DNA from: a phage
Reading direction: 5' to 3' (one strand)
Sequence record: PZ445442.1
DNA length: 64,000 nucleotides
The position numbers and the translations under genes were made by a program. Positions within the stretch are counted from its first letter, which is position 1. Each line of letters begins with the position of its first letter. The notes beneath the pieces were generated by a model. The model made no database searches, was not told the DNA's origin, and saw only the letters and a program-made list of their open reading frames with translations. Shown here in pieces: positions 5,873-64,000 of the stretch.

Positions 5873-5930
5873 TGTTTAACAAAGAGTGGGAGGGGTAGTA
5901 CAACCGCCTCCCCTTTAAGGAGAACTGTAT

Positions 5931-8354: not shown

Positions 8355-9196
8355 AAATAACATTGTGGCTTCGTGCAGTGATGCACGTCGAAAACCTCTT
8401 TAATTGACGGGAAGGCTAAGTTGACTTTTACACCTAAACATGGTAAAAGCTCAATATGCTAATCCGCAGCGAAGACTAAAGGGGTGTAGTTAAAATGGCT
8501 AGATCAGTTGATTATCACGGATATACCGTGTTTGATGATGGAACAATACCTTTATCGAAACGTGATCATACAACAATGTTCTGTTTTGATAATGGTCGAG
8601 GTTACCTTTGCGTAACCATGTTCATCGAGGGGAAGCAGTGCACAAAAGGTGTCCACCACTTGGTTGCTGAATGCTTTGTATCAAACCCTGATCCTGAAAG
8701 GCTCACATGGGTGAACCATAAGGACGGAAACAAATACAACAATGCATACTGGAACCTTGAATGGACCACCCCTGGTGGAAATATCAAACACGCTTATGAT
8801 AATGACCTCAGAGTAAGGCCAGTCGGTGAGTATAATGCCAACGCTGTACTGACCGAGGATGAGGTAACGGAGATTTGCGAACTGTTACAAAGTGGTTTAC
8901 GACAATGCGAGATTAGGGATCTTGGGTATCCTTATGAGACGGTCAGAGCCATAAAGCAAAGAAGACAGTGGAAACATATCTCTAAAAACTACACCTGGTA
9001 GTAACGTTCAGAGACTATCGAAAGCATAGCGCCAACATAAATTGGTGCGAAGAAGCGAGTAGAGTAGGCCAGCAAGTGCGGTCGAAATGGGAGGTGCCTT
9101 GGTAACAAGGTAGTGAGATAGTCCGATCCATACAGGAAACTGTATGGCTGTGCACGTAATGGTGCGGGGTAGCTTAACGACCTACCTGAACTATTG
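8355..9196 (+). mobile_element. group I self-splicing intron in DNA polymerase gene (contains HNH ORF)
   Basis: P1: exon CCAT (8351-8354) pairs with intron GTGG (8365-8368) giving the U-G splice-site wobble; P7 strands CAGAGACTA (about 9009-9017) and GAGATAGTCCG (about 9115-9125); intron ends in G9196; splicing restores motif C (...YYH|DEYQLQV). Confidence 0.7.
8495..9001 (+). CDS. intron-encoded HNH homing endonuclease
   Basis: Track ORF; HLVAECFVSNPDPERLTWVNHKDGNKYNNAYWNLEW HNH_3-like signature; located between P6-region and P7 of the intron. Confidence 0.75.
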   Translation: MARSVDYHGYTVFDDGTIPLSKRDHTTMFCFDNGRGYLCVTMFIEGKQCTKGVHHLVAECFVSNPDPERLTWVNHKDGNKYNNAYWNLEWTTPGGNIKHAYDNDLRVRPVGEYNANAVLTEDEVTEICELLQSGLRQCEIRDLGYPYETVRAIKQRRQWKHISKNYTW

Positions 9197-9550
9197 GATG
9201 AGTACCAACTTCAAGTGCCTGACACACCTAAGTATAAAACCGTATACACCTTCGACACAATTGAAGAGCTGGAAACATTTAAGGCCAAGCAGGAGGCTAA
9301 ACTTCATGTGTTCGACGGTCATAAGTACAAAAAGGCACGCAAGGATGAGGATGGAAACGAAGTGGTTGACAAGGACGGAAATACGGTGTACGATCCTATC
9401 CTGAACGATGACGGAAAGCTTGAACTTATCTGGAGCCCTGTGGGTGAAATGGTGGTGCATTGCTTCTGGCAAGCTTCTAAAATGATGGGAGTCCCGTTCC
9501 AGATCACAGGTGAATACTTGTGTGGTCGTAATTGGGGTGATTGTCACTAA
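9197..9550 (+). CDS. DNA polymerase, family A, exon 2 (motif C and C-terminus)
   Basis: Begins DEYQLQV (motif C HDE after splicing) and ends ...GRNWGDCH, resembling the C-terminal tail of family-A polymerases. Confidence 0.75.
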   Translation, partial: DEYQLQVPDTPKYKTVYTFDTIEELETFKAKQEAKLHVFDGHKYKKARKDEDGNEVVDKDGNTVYDPILNDDGKLELIWSPVGEMVVHCFWQASKMMGVPFQITGEYLCGRNWGDCH

Positions 9551-9884: not shown

Positions 9885-10108
9885 CGACTTTGGTTAAAGC
9901 TACCTTTGTAGAAGAAAAGATGACAGACCTGTCATTCTTTAAAGAAGGAAAGACCTACGAGGTTTATTACGATAAAGCTCGTGCAAACAAAATGATTAAA
10001 GACGAGGAAGGGGTTGCCTGGTATATCTCTCACCTGGCAAACGGTGAGTATCATATCTACGGAACCACTTTGCTTGCCAAGTTTGTAGTTGTTGAAGAGG
10101 ACCTATGA
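9881..10108 (+). CDS. hypothetical protein
   Basis: Track ORF; ATGA overlap with upstream gene. Confidence 0.5.
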   Translation: MTTLVKATFVEEKMTDLSFFKEGKTYEVYYDKARANKMIKDEEGVAWYISHLANGEYHIYGTTLLAKFVVVEEDL

Positions 10109-10299
10109 AAGTAAAGTATCTTGCTGAAGGTATGAATAGGTATTTTACCCTTGGTGAAGAATATTGGCCCTTTACAAACAACGGCGATGTCTACGTGAAA
10201 GATAATTTCGGCACGCCGTGGTTTCTGCACTCTAATGGGCTGGGATACTCCATTTACTGCGGTGCAGTGAACAACACAACTCTTGCAGAGTTCGTTTAG
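10105..10299 (+). CDS. hypothetical protein
   Basis: Track ORF; ATGA overlap with upstream gene. Confidence 0.45.
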   Translation: MKVKYLAEGMNRYFTLGEEYWPFTNNGDVYVKDNFGTPWFLHSNGLGYSIYCGAVNNTTLAEFV

Positions 10300-10309
10300 A
10301 GGAGGTAGG

Positions 10310-10681
10310 ATGTTAGTAAAAGGTACCCACACAGTCAAACAACGTATTGAAGTTGAGATTGATGATTGTGAGCTGAAGCATATTTTACGGTCATGCTCCA
10401 ACGTTTTGCTCCTTAGTATTCTTCAGGAGCGAGCGGAGAAAGAGTTCTTAAATGCATTGGCAGGCCGTCCCGGTGACTTCTGTGTGCGTAAGCGTGGTGA
10501 CAACAAGTCGTGGTTGTGGGAGATCGATGCCGACTGGGATTACCACAAAAATGAGGGTATAGATGAGCCTATTCGTGAACTGACGGACAAAGAGATTCAG
10601 ATGTACAATGAAGTTTGTCATTGGGCAACACGCCAACAAATTTACCTAGACCCTGTGTGGCTGATTGAAAATAGTCGTTGA
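10310..10681 (+). CDS. hypothetical protein
   Basis: Track ORF 10283..10681 trimmed to ATG 10310 after GGAGG SD. Confidence 0.5.
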   Translation: MLVKGTHTVKQRIEVEIDDCELKHILRSCSNVLLLSILQERAEKEFLNALAGRPGDFCVRKRGDNKSWLWEIDADWDYHKNEGIDEPIRELTDKEIQMYNEVCHWATRQQIYLDPVWLIENSR

Positions 10682-29997: not shown

Positions 29998-30599
29998 TCT
30001 GCTCTTCCCCCTACCATAAACGGCCCTACCTGGCAAGTGGAATAATTGACGAGCCATCAATCCCACACACTGTACAAACATACATATAAAATAACTATTG
30101 CATAATTTTTCATTGTGTGGTAGCAGGGCCATTTTTACACATTTTTCCTTCCAAAATTGCACGTAATGCAGCATTTGCACAAAATTTAACCTGATGCATA
30201 TATTCAATAGCTTGTCAACAACTAAAAATCTTTATAAGTCATACACTTACATAACTACAAAAGCGTTTTCTACGTGAAAAATCGAGTATAACTATAGCCG
30301 CCAGATCTCAGAATTTACGTACGCTCGCCATTCTATAGCCTGCTAAGCATTTATTCCAACCATAGAATAACGGAATAGTCAATACCTGCATAAAATAATT
30401 ATTCGTGTAAACTGCATAACATAAATCGGCCCAGGTGTCAACATTTTTCGTAAACAGTCTGGAATTGTCACGTTAGGTTACCATAAGCAGAGAAATCTTT
30501 AGTCGTCTAATGTTTACTGTACGTTACTATATTAACTGAAATCATTAGATGACTAATAGAAAGATAAGAAATAATTAACAATACAATTATTTTATCTGT

Positions 30600-30960
30600 A
30601 ACAATAAGGCAACTATGCAAACGAATGGCATGGCGCGACGGAGTCGCGACATAATATAAAAGCAGTAACCATCACCCCCGTGATAGTTTGTCTGCAAACT
30701 ATTAATCAGATCATAGTTGCCTTGTATTTAGTTAATCATGACATAACAAGCAAGGCAACTATAGATCTTCTAATAGTTGCCCTGCTTTTATATTATGTCA
30801 TAAATTATTAACATGCAAACGAATGGCATGGCTTATAATTTTTGAGAAAATAGTCTATACGTGAACAGTAAGGCATGCAATAGTAACAATTGTTATTGTA
30901 TCCAGTGTGTTGAGTATGCCCAGTATGTCACCATTGTGTCCAGTATGTCAGACAAGTTTT
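30600..30960. repeat. cluster of inverted and direct repeats in the convergent non-coding region
   Basis: 9-bp site GGCAACTAT at about 30608 and 30754, its complement ATAGTTGCC at about 30713 and 30773; 19-bp direct repeat TGCAAACGAATGGCATGGC at about 30616 and 30814; 18-bp inverted pair GACATAATATAAAAGCAG (about 30648) / CTGCTTTTATATTATGTC (about 30782); CCAGTATGTCA x2 at about 30920-30950. Confidence 0.5.
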
Positions 30961-32399
30961 CCTCCTCTTTGTCAAGTGCTGCATGAAAAATTTACAAACT
31001 GGTATGGTAGCATTTTTGCGGCCCTGTTTACATTCAGTAATGTATGTATAATCCTTGTTGTGTGGGCGTTTAGACGTCTAGACGGTTGGAAGTCTACAGG
31101 TCAATATCTAATCTATTGGCTGCTAACTATATCCCACACAAATAGTAAGAAATATGATTGTTATATGCGTAAACTGTAACTCATGTTATCAATCCCTGTA
31201 TGTATCACCAGTGGTGCGCATAATGGGTATTATGTTAAATTGCCCGTAATGATAACTATTCTCACAATGATAGGTATTCTCATTCACCCCAACAAAATAG
31301 GTTGCAAATGTTGTGCCACTGTGTGAACGGCCTCACCTATTAATTTGCCTCACTGCCTCGATATTTGAGAATTATTATAAAAATGAGAAGTATTCCCATT
31401 CCGTCCGCCTGGCAGCACTCCAGTCGCTACGGCTCCTGACAGGGCAGCACTCCTGTAGGTCAGGTCAAAATCGGGGTAGAACTGGACCTGTTCAGATATT
31501 TCTGGCTGACTCTTCAGGTCTGTGTGGGAAAAGCCAACCTCTCCGGCGGGGCAGGGGAGGTAAATTAAAAAATTTACGTGGTGTATGAAGAGCCCTTCAG
31601 GTAAGGCATGTATTATAGGATGAAACCCTCTTCAGGCATGATATTTGTGGGTGTGATATTTGCTGGAAAGCCAGATATGACGGGACTCCCGGCGGGGCAG
31701 GGGTAGTACAGACGGGGAAATATGGGGATGTAGTTGGGGAAATTGATCAGGCAGGTGGGGTATAGGATATGTTACAAGTATGTTAAATATGGAGGTTGAA
31801 TATCTGTAGGATTTGTGTGTAAAATCAAAGACTTAAGTGGTGTTGTGGTATTTTCTATAAATAATTCAAGTTTAATAGGTAATATTTGCCTCTATCCACT
31901 TTGTGTGGTAAACAGATTCAGATGAGATTAGTTTACAAGTGTATACATAATATACAAATTAAAGATACAGGAAACCCCCCTCCCCCTTCGGCTACCATTC
32001 ACCTTTTCCTCTGACTGGTACTTAAACACTTATTCAGACTCTTCAGGTTATCACCCATATATCATATGGCAGTGACTGGTGTCCTCCGGCCCCTCTTTCG
32101 TCACCCGTCCGCTTCGCCATGCTAATGCCATAGCCAAAGGTTCGGTTGTTCACCCTGTTCACTCAGGTGTATCTCCATACCCCTTCAAACCGAAGAGAAC
32201 AGAAAACCCGAATTACTCGGTAAAAGAAAAGAGAAGAACTTAATTTTATCAGGATAGGCAAGAATGTCAAGGCATGACTGCTCACTAAACAAGCAAACAG
32301 TCATGTGTGGGAGGTAAGTGATTGTGGTGGTGGGAAATTTAGTTGAAAGATGTGTTATAGGTGCGCTTCCAGCACTTTAGCCGGGCAGCTAATTGTGTG

Positions 32400-32615
32400 T
32401 CAGTCCAGCGGTTCATCCTCTACTTCACTGAAATCAATGTTCATGGTCTCTTCCCAACCATCGATCTCAGCACAAGAGTGGAGTTCTTTAGGGTTTACTC
32501 CCAAAGCCTCAGCAACAGAGTCTATATTTAACACCTCTGGCAGGTATGATTCATCGAATTCAAGGTAAATCAGGCCACGAGTGTTGTCAGCTCCACCAAA
32601 TATTTCTATCTTCAT
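32400..32615 (-). CDS. hypothetical small acidic protein
   Basis: Track ORF; last gene of the leftward block. Confidence 0.5.
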   Translation of the reverse strand: MKIEIFGGADNTRGLIYLEFDESYLPEVLNIDSVAEALGVNPKELHSCAEIDGWEETMNIDFSEVEDEPLD

Positions 32616-52667: not shown

Positions 52668-54983
52668 TTATAGTGCACAGCTTTCGCAATACGGATCTTC
52701 AACTGAACTATCTGCAATCAAAGGATAGTTCTTTCTGGTTTCATCTTCAGCCTGTTTCTTGGCATGAAGTTCCTCTGCCAAGGAGTCACCAGCACCAACC
52801 CTAGAGTTTAAATAATACCATGTCTTCATCCCGAATTTAGTGGCACGGATAAGGTACCCTAACTGCTCCTTCATTGAAATTTTACCATCTTTCAACTTGG
52901 TGTAGTCTATGTATAAATCCGCGCTGATTGCCTGACCTGTGAATTTTTGAATCACGGCATACATATCGATCATGTCGTTAGTATCAACGTCCCAAGCCGA
53001 GGTGTAATACTCTTTCAACTCATCATAGTCAGGAACGATAAACAGCACCTGCCCTTGTGGCGACTTTTTAAAGATAATGTGCTCACGGACAGGATAAACC
53101 CCGTTAGTGGTGTTTGTTGCCAGCGAAGAGCTTTCATTAGGCATATATGCTTCAAGAACGCTATTACGTAGCCCACCATTCTCAATGATTTCTTTACGTA
53201 ACCCTTCCCAATCCTGTTTAAGAGAAGGATCTTTCACCACGCTATCGACCTCTTTGTTATAGGTGTCGATTGGTAACCAACCTTCTGGATATTTTGTTTT
53301 ATGCATCCACTCGCAGACACCACGCTCTTTTGCCAACCGTAAACTTGCCTTATGCAAGCTGTAGCTGTGAAGTTCTGCAAGATCGTGAACGAGCTGTTTA
53401 CTTTCAGGAGACCCGTAAGTAACCTTGTGGCTGGCAATAAAATGTGCAACATTGGTAAGGCCAACCCCGATGGATCTGCGTTTTTTAACTGTGCTTTCCA
53501 TATTTTCATACGGATATGTCATGATTTCCATAACATTGTCAATCATAAGCACCGTATAGTATGCAACATCCTCATACTCCTCTGGAGTAACCCTCCCAGC
53601 TACAAGAGATGACAGGAAGCACAATGCAACCTCTCCATCATCAGCATCGTACTTGAAGATATTACGCATATCTGAATAGCCTTTTGTCGGGAGGGCTATT
53701 TCTGCACACAGGTTGCTTGAATAGATCACATCTTTAAAAGGTGTATGTCTATTCATCTCATCTGTCCAGTATACGTACAGCCTTCCCACCTCAGTGCGCT
53801 GCGTGATCAGTTCAACAGCAAGATCTCTGGCTCGGATCCATGTTTTAGGAATACTGTCATCTTTAGCAATACGATCAACCTCTGCATCAAACTCCTCCAT
53901 AGACATGGTGAAGATACCCTCATGCAGTTGAGGCGCGTGCTTATAAGAAACAAGCATCCAATCTAAATTCTTAGCCACACGGTTGATAAACGACCTATTA
54001 ATACCGATGGAGTAGTCCATGGTGTTGATTCTTTTTGAAGCAACAGTCATAGGGTTTCTCAAACGGATTAGCTCATCAATCTGCGGGTCCAGTGCAAGGA
54101 ATGATACTGTTGCAGAACCACCACGTGATTGTTGTCTGTTCTCCTTAACCCCAGCATCAATACCTCGATAATATGGAATCTTACCCATATGTTTAATAGT
54201 GTTACCACGAACACCATCGCCTGCAGATCTTGAGGATAAGTAGTAGCCGATACCTGCTTGATTAACCGTCATTGTGTACGCAACTTCACGTGCCACACCA
54301 ATAGATTTTGCTGTATCGTCAGCTTTTATTACACAACAAGATGCATATCCTGTCTTACCTGTGCGCAGCCCGTTTAAGTACGGTGTCGGGGCATTGATCT
54401 TTAAGTCGGACAGATAAGTGTATAATTTTACAACATCGTTGATACGACGTTCTTTCGGCATATTCTTCATGACAGCCATTGCTATCCCCATAAACATCAT
54501 CTGGGGAGATTCAAACAAGGTGTCTTTAAGAGTATCCTTGATCCCATATTTGTCGCGAAACTGTTTAAGGACTGCATAGCCATAACCGAGATCTTTACTG
54601 TGGTCAATAACAGCGTCTAAAGTGTTTAGCTCGGTAAAGCTATAACCCATATCCTCCCAATAACCTTTCTCAACCATGTCATTGTAAAATGATGGTAAGG
54701 AAGGGATCTTTGTAAACCCTCCAAAAGCCTCTTTATAGATCTGACCAATAAGAACACGACCAGCCATACAGGAATGTGCTTCGTCTTTACGGCTAACACA
54801 AGAGTCTATAATAGCTTGGTTAACTTCTTTGGTTGTACATCCATCATACAACCGCTTGTAGGCATCCAGTGCAATATGTGACCAATTGCCGTTACCATCG
54901 TCACCGAAAATAGCTGCCTTATTTAAACGTTCTGGATCGAATGCCACTTCACATCCGTTGCTTTTAATTACCTTGGTGATCAA
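52668..54983 (-). CDS. nrdA: ribonucleotide reductase class Ia alpha subunit
   Basis: N-terminal ATP-cone (VIKSNGCEVAFD), active-site SNLCAEI block, PNESSSLATNTTNG, C-terminal Cys pair. Confidence 0.9.
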   Translation of the reverse strand: MITKVIKSNGCEVAFDPERLNKAAIFGDDGNGNWSHIALDAYKRLYDGCTTKEVNQAIIDSCVSRKDEAHSCMAGRVLIGQIYKEAFGGFTKIPSLPSFYNDMVEKGYWEDMGYSFTELNTLDAVIDHSKDLGYGYAVLKQFRDKYGIKDTLKDTLFESPQMMFMGIAMAVMKNMPKERRINDVVKLYTYLSDLKINAPTPYLNGLRTGKTGYASCCVIKADDTAKSIGVAREVAYTMTVNQAGIGYYLSSRSAGDGVRGNTIKHMGKIPYYRGIDAGVKENRQQSRGGSATVSFLALDPQIDELIRLRNPMTVASKRINTMDYSIGINRSFINRVAKNLDWMLVSYKHAPQLHEGIFTMSMEEFDAEVDRIAKDDSIPKTWIRARDLAVELITQRTEVGRLYVYWTDEMNRHTPFKDVIYSSNLCAEIALPTKGYSDMRNIFKYDADDGEVALCFLSSLVAGRVTPEEYEDVAYYTVLMIDNVMEIMTYPYENMESTVKKRRSIGVGLTNVAHFIASHKVTYGSPESKQLVHDLAELHSYSLHKASLRLAKERGVCEWMHKTKYPEGWLPIDTYNKEVDSVVKDPSLKQDWEGLRKEIIENGGLRNSVLEAYMPNESSSLATNTTNGVYPVREHIIFKKSPQGQVLFIVPDYDELKEYYTSAWDVDTNDMIDMYAVIQKFTGQAISADLYIDYTKLKDGKISMKEQLGYLIRATKFGMKTWYYLNSRVGAGDSLAEELHAKKQAEDETRKNYPLIADSSVEDPYCESCAL

Positions 54984-55288
54984 TTTGCTTCCTCCACTTC
55001 ACTAACGTATTTATCAAGGCAGGTATCAGTATCTTGCTGGATAAAAGTATCCTCTTCTACAGAGATATTTATAATTTTACCTGTATACTCGTCATAATAG
55101 ACATCATCATACATTTTAATATCGTTTGTCAGGCCATTGAACCAAAGCCAACCAACATACTCTGCCCGACTTGCAAAACCAAGATCCTTCCACTTGGAGT
55201 TATGACTCATCTTCACCACCTTAGCTTTCAATACCGAATAATTTTTCCAGGCGATGCAGATCTTCAAAATTGAAAGGTTCATCAACAA
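54980..55288 (-). CDS. hypothetical protein
   Basis: Track ORF. Confidence 0.5.
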   Translation of the reverse strand: MLMNLSILKICIAWKNYSVLKAKVVKMSHNSKWKDLGFASRAEYVGWLWFNGLTNDIKMYDDVYYDEYTGKIINISVEEDTFIQQDTDTCLDKYVSEVEEAN

Positions 55289-55721
55289 TATGAATATCTT
55301 CAGCCTTTTCAGATTGTTTTGTATACTTTCTTACATTAACACGATCCTCTACAGGGATATCATACGGGAGATCTTGAACAAGCATTGCCTCACCAGGTGC
55401 TTTATCTACATCTAAAATATCTACACCGTTATACATTTGTGGGTATCTAAAGTCTGCACGCATGACACCAGCAAATACATCTGCCTTTCGATAATGTGTT
55501 GGCTTATTTTTGCATCGAACGTTTTTTCCACGAAGAACATCAATACTTTTTAAATCAAACCCTACGGCAAAGAGTGCAGCTCGGAGACCGTTTCGTGTGC
55601 GAACGTTAAACCCGGGGACGGTAGATAGAAAATCTAAAGTAACTGAAATAAATGTCTTTTTAGGAATCATAACATTACTCATATCTGTCTCCATTTCTGG
55701 CTCACCAACAAAGTGAGCCAT
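55221..55721 (-). CDS. hypothetical protein
   Basis: Track ORF; start uncertain. Confidence 0.45.
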   Translation of the reverse strand: MAHFVGEPEMETDMSNVMIPKKTFISVTLDFLSTVPGFNVRTRNGLRAALFAVGFDLKSIDVLRGKNVRCKNKPTHYRKADVFAGVMRADFRYPQMYNGVDILDVDKAPGEAMLVQDLPYDIPVEDRVNVRKYTKQSEKAEDIHIVDEPFNFEDLHRLEKLFGIES

Positions 55722-55780
55722 TATTATAGATTATCTAATACTATTAGTCAACACAAAAGTTACCTATCGCTGTGATAGGA

Positions 55781-56764
55781 TTAACCTTTCACGAAGTGGT
55801 TATTAAGCAGTTGTCTGTGCTGAACCCACCCACAAAAGTTGGCAGACCAGAATTTACCATCACGGTCTTGATGGGTTACACCTTCCTGCCAAGTACTGAT
55901 GTCTTGTGTGATTTCACATGAAGACAGGTAGTAGTTTAAACGTTCCATTGCGTTATCGTGATCCATAGGTGTTGCCTGGTGCTCGTAAGGGCTTGCATGA
56001 ATACGATCCCCACCAATCAATTTTTTAGCCACACTATCTGCCTTTTCAAACGTGCTGTCAATATTTCGATAAGATACTTGTGCACAGCAACTAGCACTGA
56101 TAGACAGAGCTTCTTTAGTATCGAGAATGCAGAGCTTTCCTTCTGTGTCACGTACAGCGTAGTTAAACTCTCCGTCCAAATAAACGTGCTCTACATATGG
56201 GGTGTGCCATTGACCCGGTTTAAGGATTTCAGGAGTGCTATTCTCAAGAGCCTCCCACATACAATTAGCTAACATCTGAATCGTAGGATCCGCATCGTGC
56301 CAGCAACGGAGGTGGAAAAAATTATTCCACTCGGTGCTTGTTACAACTGTTTTCATGCGCTGGAACGGCTCCACTAAGCGGTTACATACTTGCTTATGGT
56401 AACCAGCAAGGGCGAACTTCTCTGCATGCCAAGCGGCGTTTTTTGCAGCTTCTTTCCAAAACTCTTCAGGAGTTAGCTCCATGTCAGTGTACTCTACACG
56501 GATCTTTTGATCGTGTTCCCCACCATCTTCCATTCCTCGCTTATTTACACCGAAGCGAACTGGCATTGCCGGATTCTCCACAATCTGTTGCAGCATCTTG
56601 CCGACAGGTACTGCACGGGAAGACATGGCGTTTCGGCTGAACACTCGGTGCGTCATAAGCTCTGAGTGAATAATTCGAGGATACTCTAGTTCAAAAGTGG
56701 TGATACGCTTACCTTTCTCGGAAATGCTGTCAGCAATAATCTTTGCAGTGCACAGTTTTAGCAT
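55781..56764 (-). CDS. thyX: flavin-dependent thymidylate synthase (ThyX-like), long form
   Basis: ThyX-like RHR-S...S.R signature region (ELMTHRVFSRNAMSSRA); 327 aa, longer than typical ThyX. Confidence 0.7.
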   Translation of the reverse strand: MLKLCTAKIIADSISEKGKRITTFELEYPRIIHSELMTHRVFSRNAMSSRAVPVGKMLQQIVENPAMPVRFGVNKRGMEDGGEHDQKIRVEYTDMELTPEEFWKEAAKNAAWHAEKFALAGYHKQVCNRLVEPFQRMKTVVTSTEWNNFFHLRCWHDADPTIQMLANCMWEALENSTPEILKPGQWHTPYVEHVYLDGEFNYAVRDTEGKLCILDTKEALSISASCCAQVSYRNIDSTFEKADSVAKKLIGGDRIHASPYEHQATPMDHDNAMERLNYYLSSCEITQDISTWQEGVTHQDRDGKFWSANFCGWVQHRQLLNNHFVKG

Positions 56765-56964
56765 TATTTAGCTCTCCTTGTTTTAATTTTGGAAATTTCG
56801 TCTGGGTTTATGTTGGCCTTAAATGCAAGGTATCTGTTGAACATGTCAGAGCACATATCTTGGGTGATCCTAGAGGCATACACTAGCTTACCTCCTAGAT
56901 CATACACCTCTAGCCAGTCACCGTATCTGACTACAGGATCGCCACCTTTAGAACATCTGCCCAT
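56764..56964 (-). CDS. hypothetical protein
   Basis: Track ORF. Confidence 0.5.
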   Translation of the reverse strand: MGRCSKGGDPVVRYGDWLEVYDLGGKLVYASRITQDMCSDMFNRYLAFKANINPDEISKIKTRRAK

Positions 56965-56965
56965 T

Positions 56966-57559
56966 TCAAATACCTTCTAAAAATTTTCCTATTTTATACC
57001 AGCTATTAGCGGTATAGTCAACACTGACCTTTAACTCCTCGAATTGCTCATAAGGCGTATCTTTTAGGATTTTAATAACTTCAGGTCGTGAAGCGAATTG
57101 GTTCAGGTATTCATGCCTGTCGTCAATTATAACATCTACAGCCACATTCCCTTTGAAATGTGTGGCGTAGAAGCCGTGGCCCTGGGTGTGATCGTCCAGA
57201 TCCATAAAATCACTGGTCCAACGCTTTAAGAACCTTGATTTAGATGCAAGGTGACCTTTCTTGCATACCGAGATAAATGCAAGCTTGTGACCACGAGCCA
57301 CCAAATCTTTCATAACCTCAATAGCCCCCTCTTCAGGCTTAAGGAAGTCGTAGAGGAACGGATCACTCCAGAAATCAAAAGGTCCTATGATGTTTTCTTT
57401 GGGACGATCAGGCCAATACTTTGACAGATCGTAATACATTAGCCCATTAGATGGTTTAGCCACTGTCTTACTGGCTGGACCATACAAACGCTCCAACCAC
57501 TCCCACCATGCTGTTCCTGAATCTACCAGTGTCAGATCTACATCAATTCCGATTAACAT
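56966..57559 (-). CDS. HAD-superfamily phosphatase (putative 5'-deoxynucleotidase)
   Basis: HAD motif I IGIDVDLTLVD (DxDxT) at N-terminus; sits among nucleotide-metabolism genes. Confidence 0.55.
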   Translation of the reverse strand: MLIGIDVDLTLVDSGTAWWEWLERLYGPASKTVAKPSNGLMYYDLSKYWPDRPKENIIGPFDFWSDPFLYDFLKPEEGAIEVMKDLVARGHKLAFISVCKKGHLASKSRFLKRWTSDFMDLDDHTQGHGFYATHFKGNVAVDVIIDDRHEYLNQFASRPEVIKILKDTPYEQFEELKVSVDYTANSWYKIGKFLEGI

Positions 57560-58167
57560 TCTTCTTGGGCCTCTTTAGCATCAATATACTTGCACACAAT
57601 CTCCGATGCACACTCCCAAGGTGCACCTTCAGGGTTTACAACATCAAACTCAACCCCTTTTATTCCGTTCTTTTCCAGACTTAGATAGGTTCTGGAATCA
57701 TTTCCCCAGTCATATCCTACACGGTGAATACGGAACAACAACAGATCTCCACCTGTGCTGTATGCGTACTCGCTAAGGCATGCCAGCTCCTCTTTGAATC
57801 CCCCATCGGAGTAAACAATAACCCCTTTACCTTCAGGGAAATCTTTCTTCAAAGATGCGACTGCGGCTTTACCGAAAGCATCTTCACCAAAGATAGGTTT
57901 AATCAGATTTTCACTACAATGGATCATCCATTCTCGCGGAGAAACATGCTTGCCGTCTATCATTAAGAAAGGGCAAGGCTCTTCTTTGTAGTGGCGGTCA
58001 TAAAGTGCATTCCAGAGTTGAGGAGTTACACCAGCTGCCTTAATTGCCACACTGAAGAGCATTTCCTTAACCTCACGGTGGTGTGAGTTAGGAATAGCTT
58101 CCAACAAGAGATCTGCAATGTGATCCTTACCACTGCTGGGTGGGGCGTTAAGAACAATAATATCCAT
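57553..58167 (-). CDS. deoxynucleoside monophosphate kinase-like P-loop kinase
   Basis: P-loop LNAPPSSGKDHIADLL resembles T4 gp1 dNMP kinase (GVKRSGKDTTADFI). Confidence 0.6.
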   Translation of the reverse strand: MDIIVLNAPPSSGKDHIADLLLEAIPNSHHREVKEMLFSVAIKAAGVTPQLWNALYDRHYKEEPCPFLMIDGKHVSPREWMIHCSENLIKPIFGEDAFGKAAVASLKKDFPEGKGVIVYSDGGFKEELACLSEYAYSTGGDLLLFRIHRVGYDWGNDSRTYLSLEKNGIKGVEFDVVNPEGAPWECASEIVCKYIDAKEAQEEC

Positions 58168-58370
58168 TAAAAACCTCCGTGGTATTCTTCAACTGCATCA
58201 ATAATACTTTTACACTTATCTACCAGCTCGTTAGCCACTACAGCATCGTCTTCCCAAACAGCTTCCTCGATCTGATCAAGCAATGATCGCATCTTACCCA
58301 TCATTTCTGGGATAAAGTCTTCTGAAAAGCTGTCTGGAATTGTTAACTTTAGTGTCATTGCGTTCTCCAA
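58167..58370 (-). CDS. hypothetical protein
   Basis: Track ORF. Confidence 0.5.
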   Translation of the reverse strand: MENAMTLKLTIPDSFSEDFIPEMMGKMRSLLDQIEEAVWEDDAVVANELVDKCKSIIDAVEEYHGGF

Positions 58371-58385
58371 TCATACTATGCGTTA

Positions 58386-58844
58386 TTAGAAGTTTGTTTT
58401 TACACGTCCCTTTTCATCAACCTCGTTGTTGGCTAGAAGCGTTACAAAGTCTGTGAAACGGACATGAAGAACTCTTTTCTTATCAAGGTATCCTAAAGCC
58501 ACCCCTGAGAAATTTAGCATCAAAGGGGCTAAAGAAGCTCTGGCACTGAAATGCTGTTGTTCTACCCTTCCAACACCCTTAGTGTAGGATGGGTTAAGAT
58601 TGTAAGTTCTGAATCCCAGTTTTGTTGGAGCTTTAGAATTAAAAACAACTTTATAGCGTTTCTTACTCAACTTATGCTCCAGGATAAGCATTCCCTTATC
58701 ACCCTTGATAAGTTGAAAATCTGTAAAGTGCTCTTTTAATACGAAAGGTAGTGCCAGTCCCATCGCCTGCCCCCTTTGTACCGCTGTCTCACCAAAAGCT
58801 TTTGCATCAGTAAGTTCTTTGGTCAAGTCTATGCTTTTGATCAT
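58386..58844 (-). CDS. hypothetical protein
   Basis: Track ORF. Confidence 0.5.
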   Translation of the reverse strand: MIKSIDLTKELTDAKAFGETAVQRGQAMGLALPFVLKEHFTDFQLIKGDKGMLILEHKLSKKRYKVVFNSKAPTKLGFRTYNLNPSYTKGVGRVEQQHFSARASLAPLMLNFSGVALGYLDKKRVLHVRFTDFVTLLANNEVDEKGRVKTNF

Positions 58845-59625
58845 ACCTAGTCTCCAAAATGTATTGTAGTTCTTTCTTACCTATACTCTTCATTCCGGCA
58901 GTCTTACCTGCTTCTTCTTGAAAAGAAGAATAGCATTCAGCAAACACTCTGTCAACACCGTCAACTAAAGATTTTATGAAATATGTTGATTCTTCAGATT
59001 TTGGGTCATCCTCCCCCAATACTTTTCCAGCATTATACCCAACACGTCTTACACAGAAGTCGTAGTCATCTGGAGTGCTAAAAGAAAATAACTTATTCTC
59101 CCCAATCTCTACAGGATCCCTGTTGCACGCCTTTTTCTCCCAAATTTGGAAAACACACGGCACGTCATAAGGTTTGCCATTAAGTAGAAACGAGTTCTTA
59201 GGGCACCTTTCACTGTAGACAAGGTGCATCGACATGTCCAGTTTGTTTGCAAAAAATATTTTTTCAAATGTCCGTGGCAAGATGAAGGCTATAGCCCCTC
59301 CAAGCTCTAGCAATGATGCACAATGGTTAAAGAATTTGCAAGCTAAAGATGAATTCTTGCCAAATGGTGGGTTACCTATGAAGACATCTGCCTTGGGATG
59401 CACCTCCAAGAAGTTTGCCTGAATGCACGGTGTTGGTCCTTCAAATTCAGGATCTGGTACTAGATCGTAAGACAGTATCTCTGAAAATAGTTTTGAAAAA
59501 GAACCCCTTCCAGCAGAAGGCTCAACGTATGCACAATTTCCATACTTATCTTTTACTTTACCAACAAGATATTCTGCATACTCAGGGTTTGTGTAATATT
59601 TGTCGTTGGACTCTTTCTTGCTCAA
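58807..59625 (-). CDS. DNA N6-adenine methyltransferase, gamma-class-like
   Basis: YYTNPEYAEYLV, motif I VEPSAGRGSF and motif IV FIGNPPFG; track ORF 58807..59655 starts inside a terminator hairpin, so the start is tentatively moved to in-frame TTG 59625 after GGAGG. Confidence 0.6.
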   Translation of the reverse strand: MSKKESNDKYYTNPEYAEYLVGKVKDKYGNCAYVEPSAGRGSFSKLFSEILSYDLVPDPEFEGPTPCIQANFLEVHPKADVFIGNPPFGKNSSLACKFFNHCASLLELGGAIAFILPRTFEKIFFANKLDMSMHLVYSERCPKNSFLLNGKPYDVPCVFQIWEKKACNRDPVEIGENKLFSFSTPDDYDFCVRRVGYNAGKVLGEDDPKSEESTYFIKSLVDGVDRVFAECYSSFQEEAGKTAGMKSIGKKELQYILETRYDQKHRLDQRTY

Positions 59626-59644
59626 AGTGCCTCCAAAAGGAAAA

Positions 59645-59662
59645 GGGAGGCGCAAGCCTCCC
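59645..59662 (-). terminator. rho-independent terminator (minus strand)
   Basis: GGGAGGC-TTGC-GCCTCCC stem followed on the minus strand by TTTTCCTTTT. Confidence 0.55.
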
Positions 59663-59671
59663 TATACTTGA

Positions 59672-60661
59672 TTAGATTATCTGAATCAGGGTGTTTTTCA
59701 TTTCTTCTCTGGTACGGATGTTGTTACGGTCACGAACAACAGATCCACAACCTTCGCAGCGATATGTTTTAAATGCACTCAGTTGAGTATACGCCAAAGC
59801 TTCTTCCTCGTGAAGGTGTTCTCCACCGCAGCGTGGGCAACGAACTTTTGGCTCCTCATCCTGGTAGTACAATGACATGTTGGGGTGCTGCTTAGCAAAC
59901 GGGCGTGCCAGCAAATACAGGCCTTCCAGAGATAGGATATCACCAACATTGTACTCCCGCATCTGTTTAAACGCCTCAAGATCACCATGAACACACTTGA
60001 TCCACATTTCAAATGTGTGGTCAATCAGTTTCTGTCGGGCAAGTTGGAAGTATTTGCAGGCATACTCCAAAGTGTTTGCATTCAAACGGAATGCCTTCTT
60101 GATCATTTTAAGGGTGTCAACCTCTTTGTATGGGCTTGTTGGAGGCAACCCGTGAAATGCAAATCGTTGGTTTGCCCACCCACAGTCAAAACCTGAATTG
60201 TGGGCTACTGCGACATCACATTTATCCAGATAATACCACAAGTCCTGAATCAATTCGAGGTCATTGTGAATATCCTCATCCCACATTTTGCAATCGGGAA
60301 GAGCGCAGTCAACCACACTAGGACTGTCTAACCACTTACCTGCGAAAGTTAGCATATAGGGCATAATTTCAATACCGCAGGTTTGAATGTTGGTCTTATA
60401 GTGCCCAAAGAACCAGCCGTTTGTTGGTGATGTTTCTGTATCATACACCCAAACTTTAGCTCCTTTGTGTTCTTCAAGGAAGCGCTCCGTTGCTTCTCCT
60501 ACAATCTCTGACATATTCTCTTGTGCACGTTTAAGCTGTAGTCGGATCCAACTCTCACGTGACTCACGGCCTAAAAATTCACGAGCAATTTGTCTATTAG
60601 TGTATCCCTGCTGCTTTAGTGTTAAAATTTGCTCAAGAGTTAACTTTGTCATCATCGTCAA
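59672..60661 (-). CDS. DEDD-family 3'-5' exonuclease (DnaQ-like) with N-terminal HTH and C-terminal zinc ribbon
   Basis: Exo I VYDTETS, Exo II VAHNSGFD, Exo III H..D; C-terminal CPRCGG...CEGCG. Confidence 0.65.
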   Translation of the reverse strand: MTMMTKLTLEQILTLKQQGYTNRQIAREFLGRESRESWIRLQLKRAQENMSEIVGEATERFLEEHKGAKVWVYDTETSPTNGWFFGHYKTNIQTCGIEIMPYMLTFAGKWLDSPSVVDCALPDCKMWDEDIHNDLELIQDLWYYLDKCDVAVAHNSGFDCGWANQRFAFHGLPPTSPYKEVDTLKMIKKAFRLNANTLEYACKYFQLARQKLIDHTFEMWIKCVHGDLEAFKQMREYNVGDILSLEGLYLLARPFAKQHPNMSLYYQDEEPKVRCPRCGGEHLHEEEALAYTQLSAFKTYRCEGCGSVVRDRNNIRTREEMKNTLIQII

Positions 60662-60667
60662 AATTCC

Positions 60668-60889
60668 TTAGTAAAACTGAAGAATGTCTTTTAAAGCGAA
60701 GTCACGATATTCGCCCTTGTCTACATCAAAGGCATGCATCAACCACTGCTCTTCTTTATGATACTCTGTAGAGCCAAACCATAAATTAGGCTCAGTAACG
60801 CAGCGATCTGCAACAACACCTTTCCAGTTACGGTATTTCATCCTGATCAGGACTGAGTCGCAAGGATTGAATACCTTTTTCATCCCCAT
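60668..60889 (-). CDS. hypothetical protein
   Basis: Track ORF; overlaps start of next ORF, boundaries uncertain. Confidence 0.4.
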   Translation of the reverse strand: MGMKKVFNPCDSVLIRMKYRNWKGVVADRCVTEPNLWFGSTEYHKEEQWLMHAFDVDKGEYRDFALKDILQFY

Positions 60890-61433
60890 AGAAATCTCTC
60901 TCCTCAGTTTTCTTTATAAACTCCTGCATGTAGGACTCAATAGCCTCATGCTTGGTGCACTCTGGATTAATGACAAGATTGAGATCTGATTCTGCTCGTG
61001 CAATAATCGTAGCTTTAGAGCATCTCCTCAAGAACTTTGTCATATCATCTCTGTAGTTTTTGTGGAGCGGGAAGTCGCTGTAGTCTTTCTCCAGATAGTC
61101 AGCCATCCGGCGCAACGCCTCTGATAAACTGCAATCTGTATACTCGTTACAGTATTTCATCCAGTATTTAAGCACATACCCCTCAAAGGTATTAGTGCAC
61201 TGAGACAAAACACCCCTGCAACGACCAGTCAGATGATCATGATCTAAACAAGGCTTACGAAGTGGCTCGCACAAGATCGGATCAAGACCATCCTGCTCCT
61301 CTGACAATTCTTTTCGAAAGTTGGCTATGTCCTTAGAATCTTTTAGCCACCCGCTATGAACGGGGGCTTTGACAGCTTTCTTTCTTATTTTACGCTTTGC
61401 GATAACCCCTCCAGATGCGCCCTGCCTATCCAA
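60828..61433 (-). CDS. endonuclease VII-like (T4 gp49-type) junction-resolving nuclease
   Basis: PCLDHDHLTGRCRGVLSQCTNTFEG matches the T4 endo VII zinc/HNH core (NHLDHDHELNG...RGLLCNLCNAAEG). Confidence 0.65.
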   Translation of the reverse strand: MDRQGASGGVIAKRKIRKKAVKAPVHSGWLKDSKDIANFRKELSEEQDGLDPILCEPLRKPCLDHDHLTGRCRGVLSQCTNTFEGYVLKYWMKYCNEYTDCSLSEALRRMADYLEKDYSDFPLHKNYRDDMTKFLRRCSKATIIARAESDLNLVINPECTKHEAIESYMQEFIKKTEERDFYGDEKGIQSLRLSPDQDEIP

Positions 61434-62014
61434 TAAGCATCTGCGAGATCGGCCTTACCTTGTACCAAATTGATCCCATCTAGGAACCCTGGTTCAGATA
61501 CTTCGCAGGCCTTAACCATCAACTTTTTATCCATCGTAACAGGTTTCTTCACAGTATGCTCTTTACCTGTCTTTTTGTCAAGCTTTTTCTTCTCCTCGAA
61601 AGCAAGTTCCTCAGGAAGATGACTACGAGCAAACTTTTTGGCAGTTGTTGGTGTCACTGTGTGGACCTTAAACAGGCCGTCATTTTCACAATCAGCTAAG
61701 GCATCCCAAAGCATAACTTCAAGACCGTAAAACAACCCAGCCAGTTCACGTGTGGCATCCCCGCGTGATCCAAAGGAAAGCCCTTCCATAACTACGGTGT
61801 CAACGCCGTGCGTGTGGATATAATATCTGACCTGTTTGCAGATCCAGTCAATACGCTCAGCAGCTGTTGCAAAAGAAACCGTCCCTGGTTTCTTCTCTTT
61901 TGCAGATGAGCTTTGAGTTCGTAACACAACCTTATGAACAGGCTTTCCATCGTCCCATACAACGCAAGCTGTGTGTGTCAACGACTGGTCTATGGATAAT
62001 AGACGCTCTCTCAT
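61385..62014 (-). CDS. RuvC-like Holliday junction resolvase
   Basis: N-terminal LSIDQSLTHTACVVW resembles the RuvC catalytic start (GIDPG...G.AV); C-terminal LADAYWIGRA acidic-residue motif. Confidence 0.5.
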   Translation of the reverse strand: MRERLLSIDQSLTHTACVVWDDGKPVHKVVLRTQSSSAKEKKPGTVSFATAAERIDWICKQVRYYIHTHGVDTVVMEGLSFGSRGDATRELAGLFYGLEVMLWDALADCENDGLFKVHTVTPTTAKKFARSHLPEELAFEEKKKLDKKTGKEHTVKKPVTMDKKLMVKACEVSEPGFLDGINLVQGKADLADAYWIGRAHLEGLSQSVK

Positions 62015-62346
62015 GCTTCCTCATCCTCCTCTCCTTCATCAGGAGCATAAGCCTTATCTTTGAACAATACGAGAGAGCAAAGCTTAACATCTGTTTCCAC
62101 ACTGGTGAACATGCATAACCGCTCGCCCTCAATCAGCTCACAATCCTCTTTTAAAACAGCAGACCATACACGGTCATCTGCGTAATCATCCGTGTACAGG
62201 ATGTATGAAATGGTGTCATCTTCATACAACCGCCACATACCTGTGGCAACAACGAATGTATTTTTTGTTTTAAGTGTCCCTGTTGTGTGATCATCCTCAA
62301 AAACAGCTTCCATAATTGCGTTATCTACAGAATTTTTAGTCATCAA
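62011..62346 (-). CDS. hypothetical protein
   Basis: Track ORF. Confidence 0.5.
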   Translation of the reverse strand: MMTKNSVDNAIMEAVFEDDHTTGTLKTKNTFVVATGMWRLYEDDTISYILYTDDYADDRVWSAVLKEDCELIEGERLCMFTSVETDVKLCSLVLFKDKAYAPDEGEEDEEA

Positions 62347-63482
62347 ATTGCTCCAACATTTCTAAGAACGTTAACAAGTTTTGTTTGATCATTGAATGTT
62401 CGCTTCATATACAAACAGTCAAAAATTATACTCATCCATTGACCTACGGAAATTCTACGATCAATACCATTGAAGTCAGTATACTTAACAACACCTTTCG
62501 GGAACCACTTCTTGTACTGATCAATAATAGCCATCCACATCTCCTTTGGAGTGCTGCACTGAGACAGTAGGTAGAATGCTGAGGCATCTCCGAACTTACC
62601 CTTACCGATAAGTCCCTGATACGGCTTGATGTTGTCAGCAGAGTCACCACACAGCATTTGGTATCCGAAGAACAGCATTCCGTAACCACCAACCTCTCCA
62701 TTAGGCTTCATGAAGATGTTCCCCATACCGTTATCGATCAGCATAGGGGTTTCTCTTACAAAATCTCCCTTATCGTTCCGCATGGGATCGAACACAAGCC
62801 CCGGTAGTGTTCTTTGGTCCTTATCAATAGAGATAATAAACTTGTTGAACTTACCTGTTTTTTGGTAGTGGTTCCAACCTTCAAATTGCTGGATAGCTAA
62901 CCAGTCGTCAGCCTCGATACCGTTGATCACTTGAGCATTATACTGCTTTTGGAGATACTGTCTTGCATCTCCAAGCAGCAGTGGTCGAAGAGTATTGTTA
63001 CGGTTGGCTTTATATCTTTCCGGCATGGGAAGATCTAGTCTGAAATTACCTGTGCCTCCAAGTACCCCCACGCACCGATCTTCCGGAATACCGAGATAAT
63101 TAAGGACTGCATTAGCTTTACACTTAATTGTGTGCAAGCAGTTCTCTACAGGATCAGGGGTTTGGATATCCAAGACATCGAAATCTTCTCGTGTCCACGG
63201 AATAAACTCCTTGCCAGCCTTTTTACATGCAGCTTCACGGTTGGTATTCTCAGCTTTTAACCAACCTCCAACGGTGTTCTTCTGCCGCCCCCAGAACTCT
63301 GTTCGTGTTTTAAACATCTTCTTACGTCCGGAGGCTTTGTGTGTTACCTCAATTGTCCTTTTTTCACAACTTGCTGCAGCTTGATATGCAACCTGATCGA
63401 AGTCATAATAAACTATAGCGTCAGGTTCAAGAAGATCAGCCAGACAATCTATGGACTCAATAAGTGGATATTCTCTACTCAA
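62343..63482 (-). CDS. 5'-3' exonuclease / flap endonuclease (T5 D15-like)
   Basis: GIEADDWLA and LCGDSADNIKP (H3TH) motifs of FEN-family nucleases. Confidence 0.8.
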   Translation of the reverse strand: MSREYPLIESIDCLADLLEPDAIVYYDFDQVAYQAAASCEKRTIEVTHKASGRKKMFKTRTEFWGRQKNTVGGWLKAENTNREAACKKAGKEFIPWTREDFDVLDIQTPDPVENCLHTIKCKANAVLNYLGIPEDRCVGVLGGTGNFRLDLPMPERYKANRNNTLRPLLLGDARQYLQKQYNAQVINGIEADDWLAIQQFEGWNHYQKTGKFNKFIISIDKDQRTLPGLVFDPMRNDKGDFVRETPMLIDNGMGNIFMKPNGEVGGYGMLFFGYQMLCGDSADNIKPYQGLIGKGKFGDASAFYLLSQCSTPKEMWMAIIDQYKKWFPKGVVKYTDFNGIDRRISVGQWMSIIFDCLYMKRTFNDQTKLVNVLRNVGAI

Positions 63483-63783
63483 AGACCCTCCTGTTAGTTA
63501 TTCTGCAAGATGGTTGGATGCTGTAATGGAATGCATCATCACTCTCTGCAATAAGTGACTCAACATCCCAATACTTTTCAAAAAGGAACGGATTAGACCC
63601 CCAGTGGTGGGTTATTTTCATCAAGGAGTCTGGTATCATATAACCACAGATCTTAATTACATCGCCAGGTTGAATTGTGTTTTCATGAAGGTTGCTTGCC
63701 TTCTTCAGAATCATACCTTTATGATTCTCGTTTGCATACAACTGGACAATATCTTTATCTTCAACAATAAAAATTTTAAGCAT
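63475..63783 (-). CDS. hypothetical protein
   Basis: Track ORF. Confidence 0.5.
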   Translation of the reverse strand: MLKIFIVEDKDIVQLYANENHKGMILKKASNLHENTIQPGDVIKICGYMIPDSLMKITHHWGSNPFLFEKYWDVESLIAESDDAFHYSIQPSCRITNRRVFE

Positions 63784-64000
63784 ATCTAGTTCTCCTAGTT
63801 TATAGATATCTGACCGATAATATCAGATTAATAACACTTTTGTCAAGACTTTTTAGTCTTTCTTGGAGAGCTTTTTGTTGATCTTTTCCTTTTGTGGTAG
63901 ATTCCAAGTGCAGCGTTTTCTTGGGCGCACGTTTTAACAGTTCTCAGAGAAGAACTTTCAGCTTTAGGCAGGTTTAACTCCCACCAACCGAGCCAGTAAA

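Follow-up and report, generated by a model that had tools for sequence, protein, structure and literature searches.

Two junction-resolvase families encoded side by side in a predicted nuclease operon of the rV5-like Escherichia phage EmilHeitz (Bas49)

Introduction

Why would a phage encode two DNA-junction resolvases of different classes, one next to the other? Viral resolvases are viewed as debranching enzymes of broad action, which get the DNA ready for the assembly of virions by clearing it (PMC3864405), and in jumbo phages the RuvC-like and T4 endonuclease VII (endo VII)-like resolvases, which occur there without RuvB, follow "a nearly complementary pattern" (Iyer et al. 2021, PMC7824862). 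The question is raised by a stretch of phage DNA of 64,000 nucleotides (record PZ445442.1; the whole stretch is called the window hereafter), which carries genes of both classes. An earlier note on this DNA had described a recombination toolkit composed of a flap endonuclease (FEN), a RuvC-like protein, an endo VII-like nuclease and a DnaQ-like exonuclease. All four genes are indeed present on the minus strand between positions 59672 and 63482, with PHROG E-values ranging from 1e-37 to 1e-110. As judged from their scores, the PHROG and Pfam matches of these four predicted nucleases are far above chance level.

The phage itself is not new. Positions 59000-64000 of the window, as well as positions 1-25000, are 100% identical to Escherichia phage EmilHeitz (Bas49; MZ501062.1), an rV5-like E. 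coli phage of the genus Vequintavirus (Vequintavirinae) that has already been sequenced and mostly annotated; 121 phage records show at least 90% identity over 59000-64000. Three of the four genes bear a nuclease label in MZ501062.1, namely "putative 5'-exonuclease" for the FEN gene, "packaging and recombination endonuclease" for the endo VII gene (gp0201 in the Bas49 numbering) and "DnaQ-like 3'-5' exonuclease" for the last gene. The exception is the RuvC-like gene (gp0202), which is a "hypothetical protein" in this record, an "RNaseH" in others (magaca, ime, nomo, Murica and more) and labelled "RuvC-like Holliday junction resolvase" in recent ones. Since the enzyme families and the phage are already known, the gene content is in itself no discovery. 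What is modestly new here is a conserved dual-resolvase cassette together with a zinc-free branch of endo VII, both of them incremental. In the literature that we searched, no discussion of dual resolvases in rV5-like phages was found, and the RuvC-like gene was mentioned at the annotation level for the relative KEC4 only.

Results

Both resolvase genes are kept together across a Vequintavirus-like clade

Comparison of 60 viral loci (numbered with the prefix L) that contain a relative of the RuvC-like gene revealed that the most widely kept link is with the FEN gene, found just upstream in 33 of them. In 23 of the 60 loci, those with a RuvC identity of about 36% or more, the RuvC gene is followed, either directly or at a short distance, by an endo VII gene of the same strand. 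The conservation extends further in about 20 loci, which share, in this order, the FEN gene, a gene for a protein of 111 amino acids (aa; p111), the RuvC and endo VII genes, a 73-aa gene (p73), the exonuclease gene, and genes for a deoxynucleoside monophosphate (dNMP) kinase, an NT5C-like nucleotidase and ThyX. In the reverse scan, performed with the endo VII profile, a RuvC gene adjoined endo VII in 18 of 80 loci, and this was seen in the same clade only.

Other loci harbour a single resolvase. The FEN-RuvC pair is found without endo VII in several of them (L014, L025/26, L044-46, L056 and L059), and a more distant lineage (L052, L057) combines FEN-RuvC with an adjoining short PF02945 protein. 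Conversely, L114 displays a phrog_107 FEN gene, an open reading frame (ORF) of 71 aa, a phrog_423 endo VII gene and a phrog_403 exonuclease gene, with no RuvC gene even when the filters were switched off. With RuvC-only, endo VII-only and both-type loci, as seen within at most 10 kb on each side, the place next to the FEN gene can be regarded as a slot for resolvases, which, judging from the predicted genes, is filled by RuvC alone, by endo VII alone or by both, the last state being conserved across the Vequintavirus-like clade. Besides, an endo VII-only relative (L093) has an HNH homing endonuclease gene (phrog_99; 5379-5990) between its FEN and endo VII genes; the FEN-to-exonuclease cassette is therefore also a target of mobile nucleases.

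The two classes that represent junction resolvases in jumbo phages (PMC7824862) are the same as those found here. However, while they are reported to be nearly complementary in jumbo phages, they are encoded here by adjacent overlapping genes, clade-wide. This conserved co-occurrence is unusual and goes against the jumbo-phage complementarity pattern.

A simple explanation for the pair would be plain redundancy, both enzymes doing the same debranching job with the second one as an insurance (for instance against inhibitors from the host or from competitors), or else a transitional stage of non-orthologous displacement. The earlier note had remarked that carrying both types is redundant unless one of them has a different role. 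The remark is reasonable and receives indirect support: either enzyme alone fills the slot in relatives, which suggests functional equivalence, and the two types are distributed in a complementary manner in jumbo phages (PMC7824862). Nonetheless, both genes are conserved clade-wide, and the pair is kept although identity drops to about 36% for RuvC and to about 26-45% for endo VII. The two families are also similarly conserved, with a mean column identity of 45% for RuvC and 47% for endo VII. In addition, the catalytic residues, on whose presence in both enzymes the earlier note had made its reading depend, are lost in no co-occurring copy. The RuvC-like tetrad (D9, E77, D189, D192) is present in 59/59 complete copies from viral loci, and endo VII-like residues D64, H65, H67, R73 and N81 in 22/22 co-occurring copies, a further residue (E84) being found in 19/22. 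Finally, a transitional state should have decayed in at least some lineages. Redundancy or backup is in our opinion an unlikely explanation. Because one of the two resolvases would otherwise have decayed in some lineage, we infer that both are active structure-selective nucleases with at least partly different roles.

The RuvC-like protein is predicted to adopt the fold of a classical junction resolvase

Neither the RuvC-like nor the FEN-like protein of the window gave a direct sequence match in Pfam or in the PDB, and profiles of homologues were used for both of them, complemented by structure prediction in the case of the RuvC-like protein. When 5.8 billion proteins were searched with the latter, 33 relatives were returned, the most distant of which carry the Pfam RuvC domain; four distant family members match PF02075, with a best E-value of 1.8e-6. 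The family profile matches Deinococcus radiodurans RuvC weakly (E = 0.55). An alignment of 30 homologues shows invariant E77, D189 and D192 and a near-invariant D9. The four residues correspond to D7, E66, D138 and D141 in E. coli RuvC and to D8, E71, D145 and D149 in the RuvC of phage bIL67 (PMC3864405), and the D-x2-D spacing of D189/D192 is the same as that of D138/D141 in the E. coli enzyme.

The AlphaFold monomer model of the RuvC-like protein has a predicted local distance difference test score (pLDDT) of 92.8 and a predicted template modelling score (pTM) of 0.89. When this model was compared with the PDB by Foldseek, the best 11 matches were all bacterial RuvC proteins (E-values from 1e-7 to 1e-5; template modelling score [TM] normalised on the target, 0.72-0.79), while phage bIL67 RuvC, Ydc2 and RuvX appeared at lower ranks. 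According to the model, the protein has the fold of a classical junction resolvase. Indeed, the RNase H-like fold with RuvC topology that characterises the enzymes of E. coli (1HJR), Thermus thermophilus (4LD0, 4EP4), D. radiodurans (7W8D) and phage bIL67 (4KTW) is predicted for the Bas49 protein too. Similarly to the bIL67 and poxvirus A22 enzymes, it would be a viral RuvC without a RuvAB partner. In contrast to the known RuvC proteins, with which it shares 12-17% identity, it is about 50 residues longer and contains two insertions. Compared with relatives of 157-161 aa, these correspond to residues ~36-48 and to a lysine-rich beta-hairpin at residues ~131-160, and they are specific to the Vequintavirus-like clade. 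Since additional positive charge was reported to widen the substrate range of bIL67 RuvC (PMC3864405), the lysine-rich insertion might, by analogy, do likewise in the Bas49 protein.

The "RNaseH" label given by several GenBank records implies another function, the removal of RNA primers, for which the kinship between RuvC and RNase H folds and the proximity of the FEN gene could both be invoked. However, the 11 best structure matches are RuvC proteins and no RNase H appears within the first 30. The D...E...D-x2-D arrangement, with its last pair on the C-terminal helix, is the pattern of RuvC; moreover, distant members match the Pfam RuvC family and the PHROG family itself is named RuvC-like. 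An RNase H function is in our view most improbable, and the protein is better described as a predicted structure-selective endonuclease of the RuvC family, presumably active.

In one locus resembling Raoultella phage Ro1 (L027), the RuvC-like gene (9995-10486) appears to be split or truncated: tblastn recovers it in two pieces and the main ORF lacks the C-terminal D-x2-D. This sole possible case of decay that we saw could be due to frameshifting, to an insertion or to an error of sequencing.

The endonuclease VII homologue has lost the zinc site of the T4 enzyme

The CLDHDHLTG...RGVLSQC motif that the earlier note had singled out was found at residues 62-79 of the endo VII-like protein. Among the four nucleases, this protein is the only one to exceed its Pfam cut-off directly (PF02945, 31.7 bits for a cut-off of 23.6). 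A phmmer search links it to T4 endonuclease VII with an E-value of 1e-4 (query residues 61-173 against T4 residues 37-153), and the family profile built from 36 homologues extends the match to T4 residues 9-155 (E = 5e-15). In addition, the sole significant PDB matches of its AlphaFold monomer model (pLDDT of 86.3) are T4 endo VII structures, with 152-157 aligned columns against a chain of 157 residues and TM values of 0.69-0.75 (Foldseek). As the similarity concerns the whole chain, the protein is, at the level of sequence and model, a predicted full-length gp49 homologue, inclusive of the C-terminal helical domain through which the domain-swapped dimer is formed in gp49, and does not merely share a catalytic motif.

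The N-terminal helix, the beta-beta-alpha-metal core and the C-terminal helical domain are thus common to T4 gp49 (1EN7, 1E7L, 2QNC, 2QNF; PF02945) and to the Bas49 homologue as modelled. Identity between the two is only 22-24%; in the latter, the zinc ligands are replaced and the N-terminus is extended by about 25-30 residues of basic character. Besides, T4 has no RuvC-type enzyme, whereas Bas49 encodes its endo VII alongside one. T4 residues D40, H41, H43, R54, N62 and E65 correspond to D64, H65, H67, R73, N81 and E84 in Bas49. Among the 36 homologues, the first five are invariant and E84 is near-invariant; in the T4 enzyme, D40, H41, H43 and N62 are essential (PMC6083498).

All four zinc ligands of T4 endo VII (C23, C26, C58 and C61, forming a CX2C...CX2C site) are lost, their positions being occupied by D51, L54, S77 and T80; the earlier note had not mentioned this loss. 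The profile alignment to T4 gives D, L, S and T/V at these positions, and the cysteines that the Bas49 protein does possess (C55, C62, C72, C79) are not retained across the family. From the alignments, the loss is derived, because the divergent syntenic copy of L024 keeps CxxC...CxxC and CR3-like copies keep the first cysteine alone. Among endo VII loci from viral contigs, all four cysteines are found only in L024 and L126-128; most of the 80 loci, several contigs of 345-366 kb included, have none of the four. A signature D-[TSIL]-Q-[VCT] stands at the T4 cysteine positions in L085-L125, which comprise the 345-366 kb contigs (L086, L091, L104, L108, L113, L120 and L121). This zinc-less signature is widely found among viral metagenome contigs, jumbo-phage-sized ones included, which have no RuvC gene within 10 kb.

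A protein with such a motif might also be some other His-Me finger nuclease, either a homing endonuclease or a packaging-associated HNH enzyme, and not a resolvase. Homing endonuclease F-CphI uses the endo VII catalytic motif (PMC6083498), the zinc site that T4 endo VII requires to bind DNA is absent, and Vequintavirus genomes contain many homing HNH genes. Yet the similarity to T4 gp49 runs along the whole chain up to the C-terminal helical domain and is not confined to the catalytic motif. The syntenic position is fixed throughout the clade with no signs of mobility, and the divergent L024 copy, located at the same position, retains a T4-like CxxC...CxxC. A non-resolvase role consequently seems highly unlikely.

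FEN-type and DEDDy exonucleases surround the two resolvases

With the profile of the FEN-like protein (16 homologues), the solved 5'-3' exonuclease 9l56 is recovered at an E-value of 5.7e-6; the matches to the N-terminal domain of Taq polymerase (0.009) and to T5 exonuclease (0.06) are weaker. Five of the 16 homologues match PF01367 and five match PF02739. Acidic residues D27, D29, E190, D192, D193, D220, D222, D280 and D283 are invariant in these homologues and in 32/32 complete copies. The YK..R, EADD, DKD and GD..DN motifs align with those of the solved exonuclease (for the H3TH-type GD-x2-DN motif, CGDSADNIKP versus GDKADNIPG in 9l56). The association of a junction-resolving endonuclease with a 5'-3' exonuclease of the FEN superfamily in a lytic phage is reminiscent of T7 gene 3 and gene 6, T4 RNase H and T5 D15. 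However, T7 endonuclease I is unrelated to RuvC and endo VII, and T7 has one resolvase where Bas49 has two. The FEN protein of Bas49 is too divergent for a direct Pfam match; its active-site carboxylates are conserved.

Concerning the exonuclease, the "DnaQ-like" description given previously is right in that it is a predicted 3'-5' exonuclease of the DEDD type, but its Exo III motif reads Y-x3-D, which makes it DEDDy and not DEDDh as DnaQ. Residues D74 and E76 (Exo I), H154, N155, F158 and D159 (Exo II), and Y237 and D241 (Exo III) are invariant in 12 homologues and in 19/19 complete copies. Its score against PF00929 (21.8 bits) is below the cut-off of 24 and concerns the Exo II region only, and the match to the Exo II region of the Pol III epsilon subunit is weak (E = 0.011). 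Extra elements are a helix-turn-helix at the N-terminus and, at the other end, a zinc ribbon of the CxxC...CxxC type. This stand-alone exonuclease is probably not the proofreading subunit of the polymerase, because the T7-type Pol A of the phage seems to have exonuclease motifs of its own at the N-terminus (DFES and HNCYSYD, recognised by eye; the match to the region of the T7 exonuclease domain is colinear but weak). The gene of this family A polymerase (~5931-9550) is split by an insertion with an HNH homing endonuclease ORF (8495-9001), and its second exon corresponds to the "DNA polymerase" PHROG match at 9194-9550. As far as the alignments tell, all four nucleases of the window keep a complete set of catalytic residues.

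The nuclease genes belong to a predicted operon

The genes had been called adjacent. They do form a same-strand cluster, but the 111-aa gene separates the FEN and RuvC genes and the 73-aa gene separates the endo VII and exonuclease genes (Table 1). Seven minus-strand genes that touch or overlap each other stand between a sigma70-like promoter and a terminator-like hairpin, with overlaps of 49 nt between the RuvC and endo VII genes and of 62 nt between the endo VII gene and the longest ORF of p73. With such an arrangement bracketed by a promoter and a terminator, the seven genes would constitute one operon of about 4.2 kb, the function of the promoter being predicted from its consensus match alone.

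Table 1. Predicted features of the nuclease operon, listed in the direction of transcription
Feature	Position in the window	Strand	Supporting features
Sigma70-like promoter	63817-63846	minus	TTGACA, 18-nt spacer, TATTAT with upstream TG; 11/12 consensus matches
102-aa gene, first of the operon	63475-63783	minus	phrog_14449 "transposase", E = 2e-72
FEN-type 5'-3' exonuclease / flap endonuclease, 379 aa	62343-63482	minus	phrog_107 "exonuclease", E = 1.7e-71
111-aa protein, acidic C-terminal tail	62011-62346	minus	phrog_7583, unknown function
RuvC-family protein, 209 aa	61385-62014	minus	phrog_159 "RuvC-like Holliday junction resolvase", E = 3.3e-39
T4 gp49-type endonuclease VII homologue, 201 aa	60828-61433	minus	PF02945, 31.7 bits; phrog_423, E = 2.9e-37
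73-aa small protein	60668-60889	minus	phrog_3715, E = 5e-26
DEDDy 3'-5' exonuclease, 329 aa	59672-60661	minus	phrog_403, E = 9.5e-110
Terminator-like hairpin and T tract	59634-59663 (hairpin 59663-59644)	minus	8-bp stem, 6 GC pairs

The hairpin (AGGGAGGC-TTGC-GCCTCCCT, followed by TTTCCTTTTG) begins 9 nt past the stop codon of the exonuclease gene. In a scan of positions 54000-64000, it was the best terminator-like site (59663-59644), and the promoter (63846-63817) was the joint-best promoter-like site. A terminator is also annotated within the matching 5-kb stretch of the related phages EdH4 and HdK5. Further downstream, the longest ORF of an N6-adenine methyltransferase gene starts within the hairpin (TTG at 59655); the start given in GenBank (window position 59626), which is located past the hairpin, is more plausible than this TTG.

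A RuvC-endo VII fusion produced by frameshifting was also considered and dropped, as no X XXY YYZ slippery heptamer of the RuvC frame is found within the 49-nt overlap. The basic N-terminal extension of endo VII is kept in diverged homologues and fits an ordinary overlapping start.

The small proteins of the operon are less easily interpreted. The 111-aa protein, lineage-specific like the 73-aa one, has no Pfam match and only 9 relatives among 1.84 billion representative proteins (HMMER); its DEGEEDEEA tail is conserved, and in 12 loci its gene separates the FEN gene from the RuvC gene. It might assist a nuclease, act as a regulator or mimic DNA. The 73-aa protein, whose gene lies between the endo VII and exonuclease genes in about 18 loci, displays a weak similarity to WYL and Sm-like SH3 domains (PF13280 and PF10902, both below the cut-off) and a conserved core (Y.NW.G...R.V.P..W.G.TEYH...QW...D.DK...R.FA..DI). 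The true start of its gene may be further downstream than that of the longest ORF. Finally, the 102-aa gene, which among the viral loci is present in the closest relative only, has no Pfam transposase domain match, and the "transposase" label of phrog_14449 is probably an inherited mis-annotation.

Additional observations on the window and on related records

Position 1 of the window corresponds to position 64683 of MZ501062.1 and position 59000 to 123586. Relative to the deposited stretch, the window has 96 nt more, due to an indel somewhere between 25000 and 55781. These E. coli Vequintaviruses share 95-100% identity with around 20 GenBank records that are named "Campylobacter phage" (e.g. 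C15, A147, D1) and give Campylobacter jejuni as the host, which suggests mislabelled hosts or contaminating phages.

Far from the nuclease genes, a region at ~30050-32400 is gene-free and AT-richer (GC of 0.386). Plus- and minus-strand gene blocks converge there and the sign of the GC skew flips. Dense direct and inverted repeats are found at 30600-30830, among them two perfect repeats, an inverted one of 18 nt and a direct one of 20 nt (198 nt apart), and no tRNA gene was detected in the unannotated gap of 30-32.5 kb. The region may serve as the origin or terminus of replication, or have a role in regulation.

Discussion

The explanation that we favour for the operon, with some confidence though well short of certainty, is that a single transcription unit provides four metal-dependent nucleases maturing the replicated phage DNA, with the two resolvases dividing the work. 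In this scheme, the removal of primers and flaps would fall to the FEN enzyme and the trimming of 3' ends to the 3'-5' exonuclease, while the two structure-selective endonucleases would make the replicating DNA packageable by excising its four-way and three-way branches. If characterised relatives are a guide, the RuvC-type enzyme would be the more Holliday-junction-specific cutter, and the endo VII-type enzyme a broad debrancher of junctions, forks, mismatches and nicks that would act during packaging. Both the debranching before packaging and the distinct roles of the resolvases are thus extrapolated from existing knowledge on T4 endo VII and RuvC. The involvement of recombination-dependent replication, which the earlier note had proposed, is not borne out: neither a recombinase nor a single-stranded DNA-binding protein (SSB) is annotated in the whole EmilHeitz record. 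Both were also absent from a PHROG scan of the ten ORFs downstream of the polymerase gene, which returned PHROGs of unknown function, a phosphatase and the second polymerase exon.

Several points weigh against the division of work in DNA maturation. With no phage recombinase or SSB found in the annotation and in the ten-ORF scan, the making of junctions would have to be left to host RecA or to an unrecognised protein. The activities of all four nucleases are predicted from homology and residue conservation. In addition, a promoter of the host sigma70 type suggests early or middle expression and not late expression, which fits a packaging role less neatly. In T4 endo VII, mutations C23S and C61S abolish both activity and DNA binding (PMC6083498); as the four zinc ligands are lost in the Bas49 homologue, its substrate binding may therefore differ from that of T4. 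Regarding the resolvase slot, the absence of the partner resolvase in single-occupant loci was judged within at most 10 kb on each side, and less at contig ends. Finally, the nucleotide-metabolism genes that come after the operon would fit a salvage role equally well.

This last possibility deserves attention. The endonucleases could nick or cut host DNA and the 5'-3' and 3'-5' exonucleases could convert it into dNMPs, to be used by the dNMP kinase, the 5'-nucleotidase, ThyX and the ribonucleotide reductases. In phage T7, gene 3 endonuclease I and gene 6 exonuclease break down host DNA and process phage DNA too. In the same vein, the succession of the nuclease genes and of those for the dNMP kinase (phrog_139), the NT5C-like nucleotidase (PF06941) and ThyX (PF02511) is kept in about 20 loci, and in Bas49 ribonucleotide reductase genes come next. 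A sigma70-like promoter is of the early type, the operon includes two exonucleases of opposite polarity, and several phage DNA methyltransferases could mark the phage's own DNA. However, a strong terminator, placed past the exonuclease gene, stands between the nuclease operon and the genes of nucleotide metabolism, enzymes of the resolvase type select for structure and are poor bulk DNases, and no sign of host-DNA degradation by Vequintaviruses was found in this analysis. We consider nucleotide salvage as a serious rival, albeit rather unlikely to be the main function, and one that is compatible with the maturation of replicated DNA by the same enzymes.

On the evolutionary side, we tentatively propose that FEN-[resolvase]-DEDDy exonuclease represents a modular cassette with which large lytic phages process branches, that RuvC and endo VII would normally be interchangeable in it, and that the Vequintavirus-like clade has long kept both through divided work. 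This broader proposal is possible, if clearly more doubtful than a role in DNA maturation. One option is that RuvC acts with FEN on replication and recombination intermediates, while the zinc-free endo VII would serve for debranching at packaging or would cut substrates of another class. Another option is that RuvC and endo VII, translated in a coupled manner from their overlapping genes, work together in one complex.

To conclude, the zinc-free proteins form a large branch within the endonuclease VII family and have lost the structural zinc site on which the T4 enzyme depends to bind DNA; how they maintain their fold and substrate binding is of specialist interest. Besides, a dual-resolvase cassette in a tractable E. 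coli phage offers a natural system to distinguish the contribution of each resolvase class. If our reading of the cassette is true, the usual mutual exclusion of viral resolvase classes would be directly testable in Bas49, a tractable phage of E. coli K-12.

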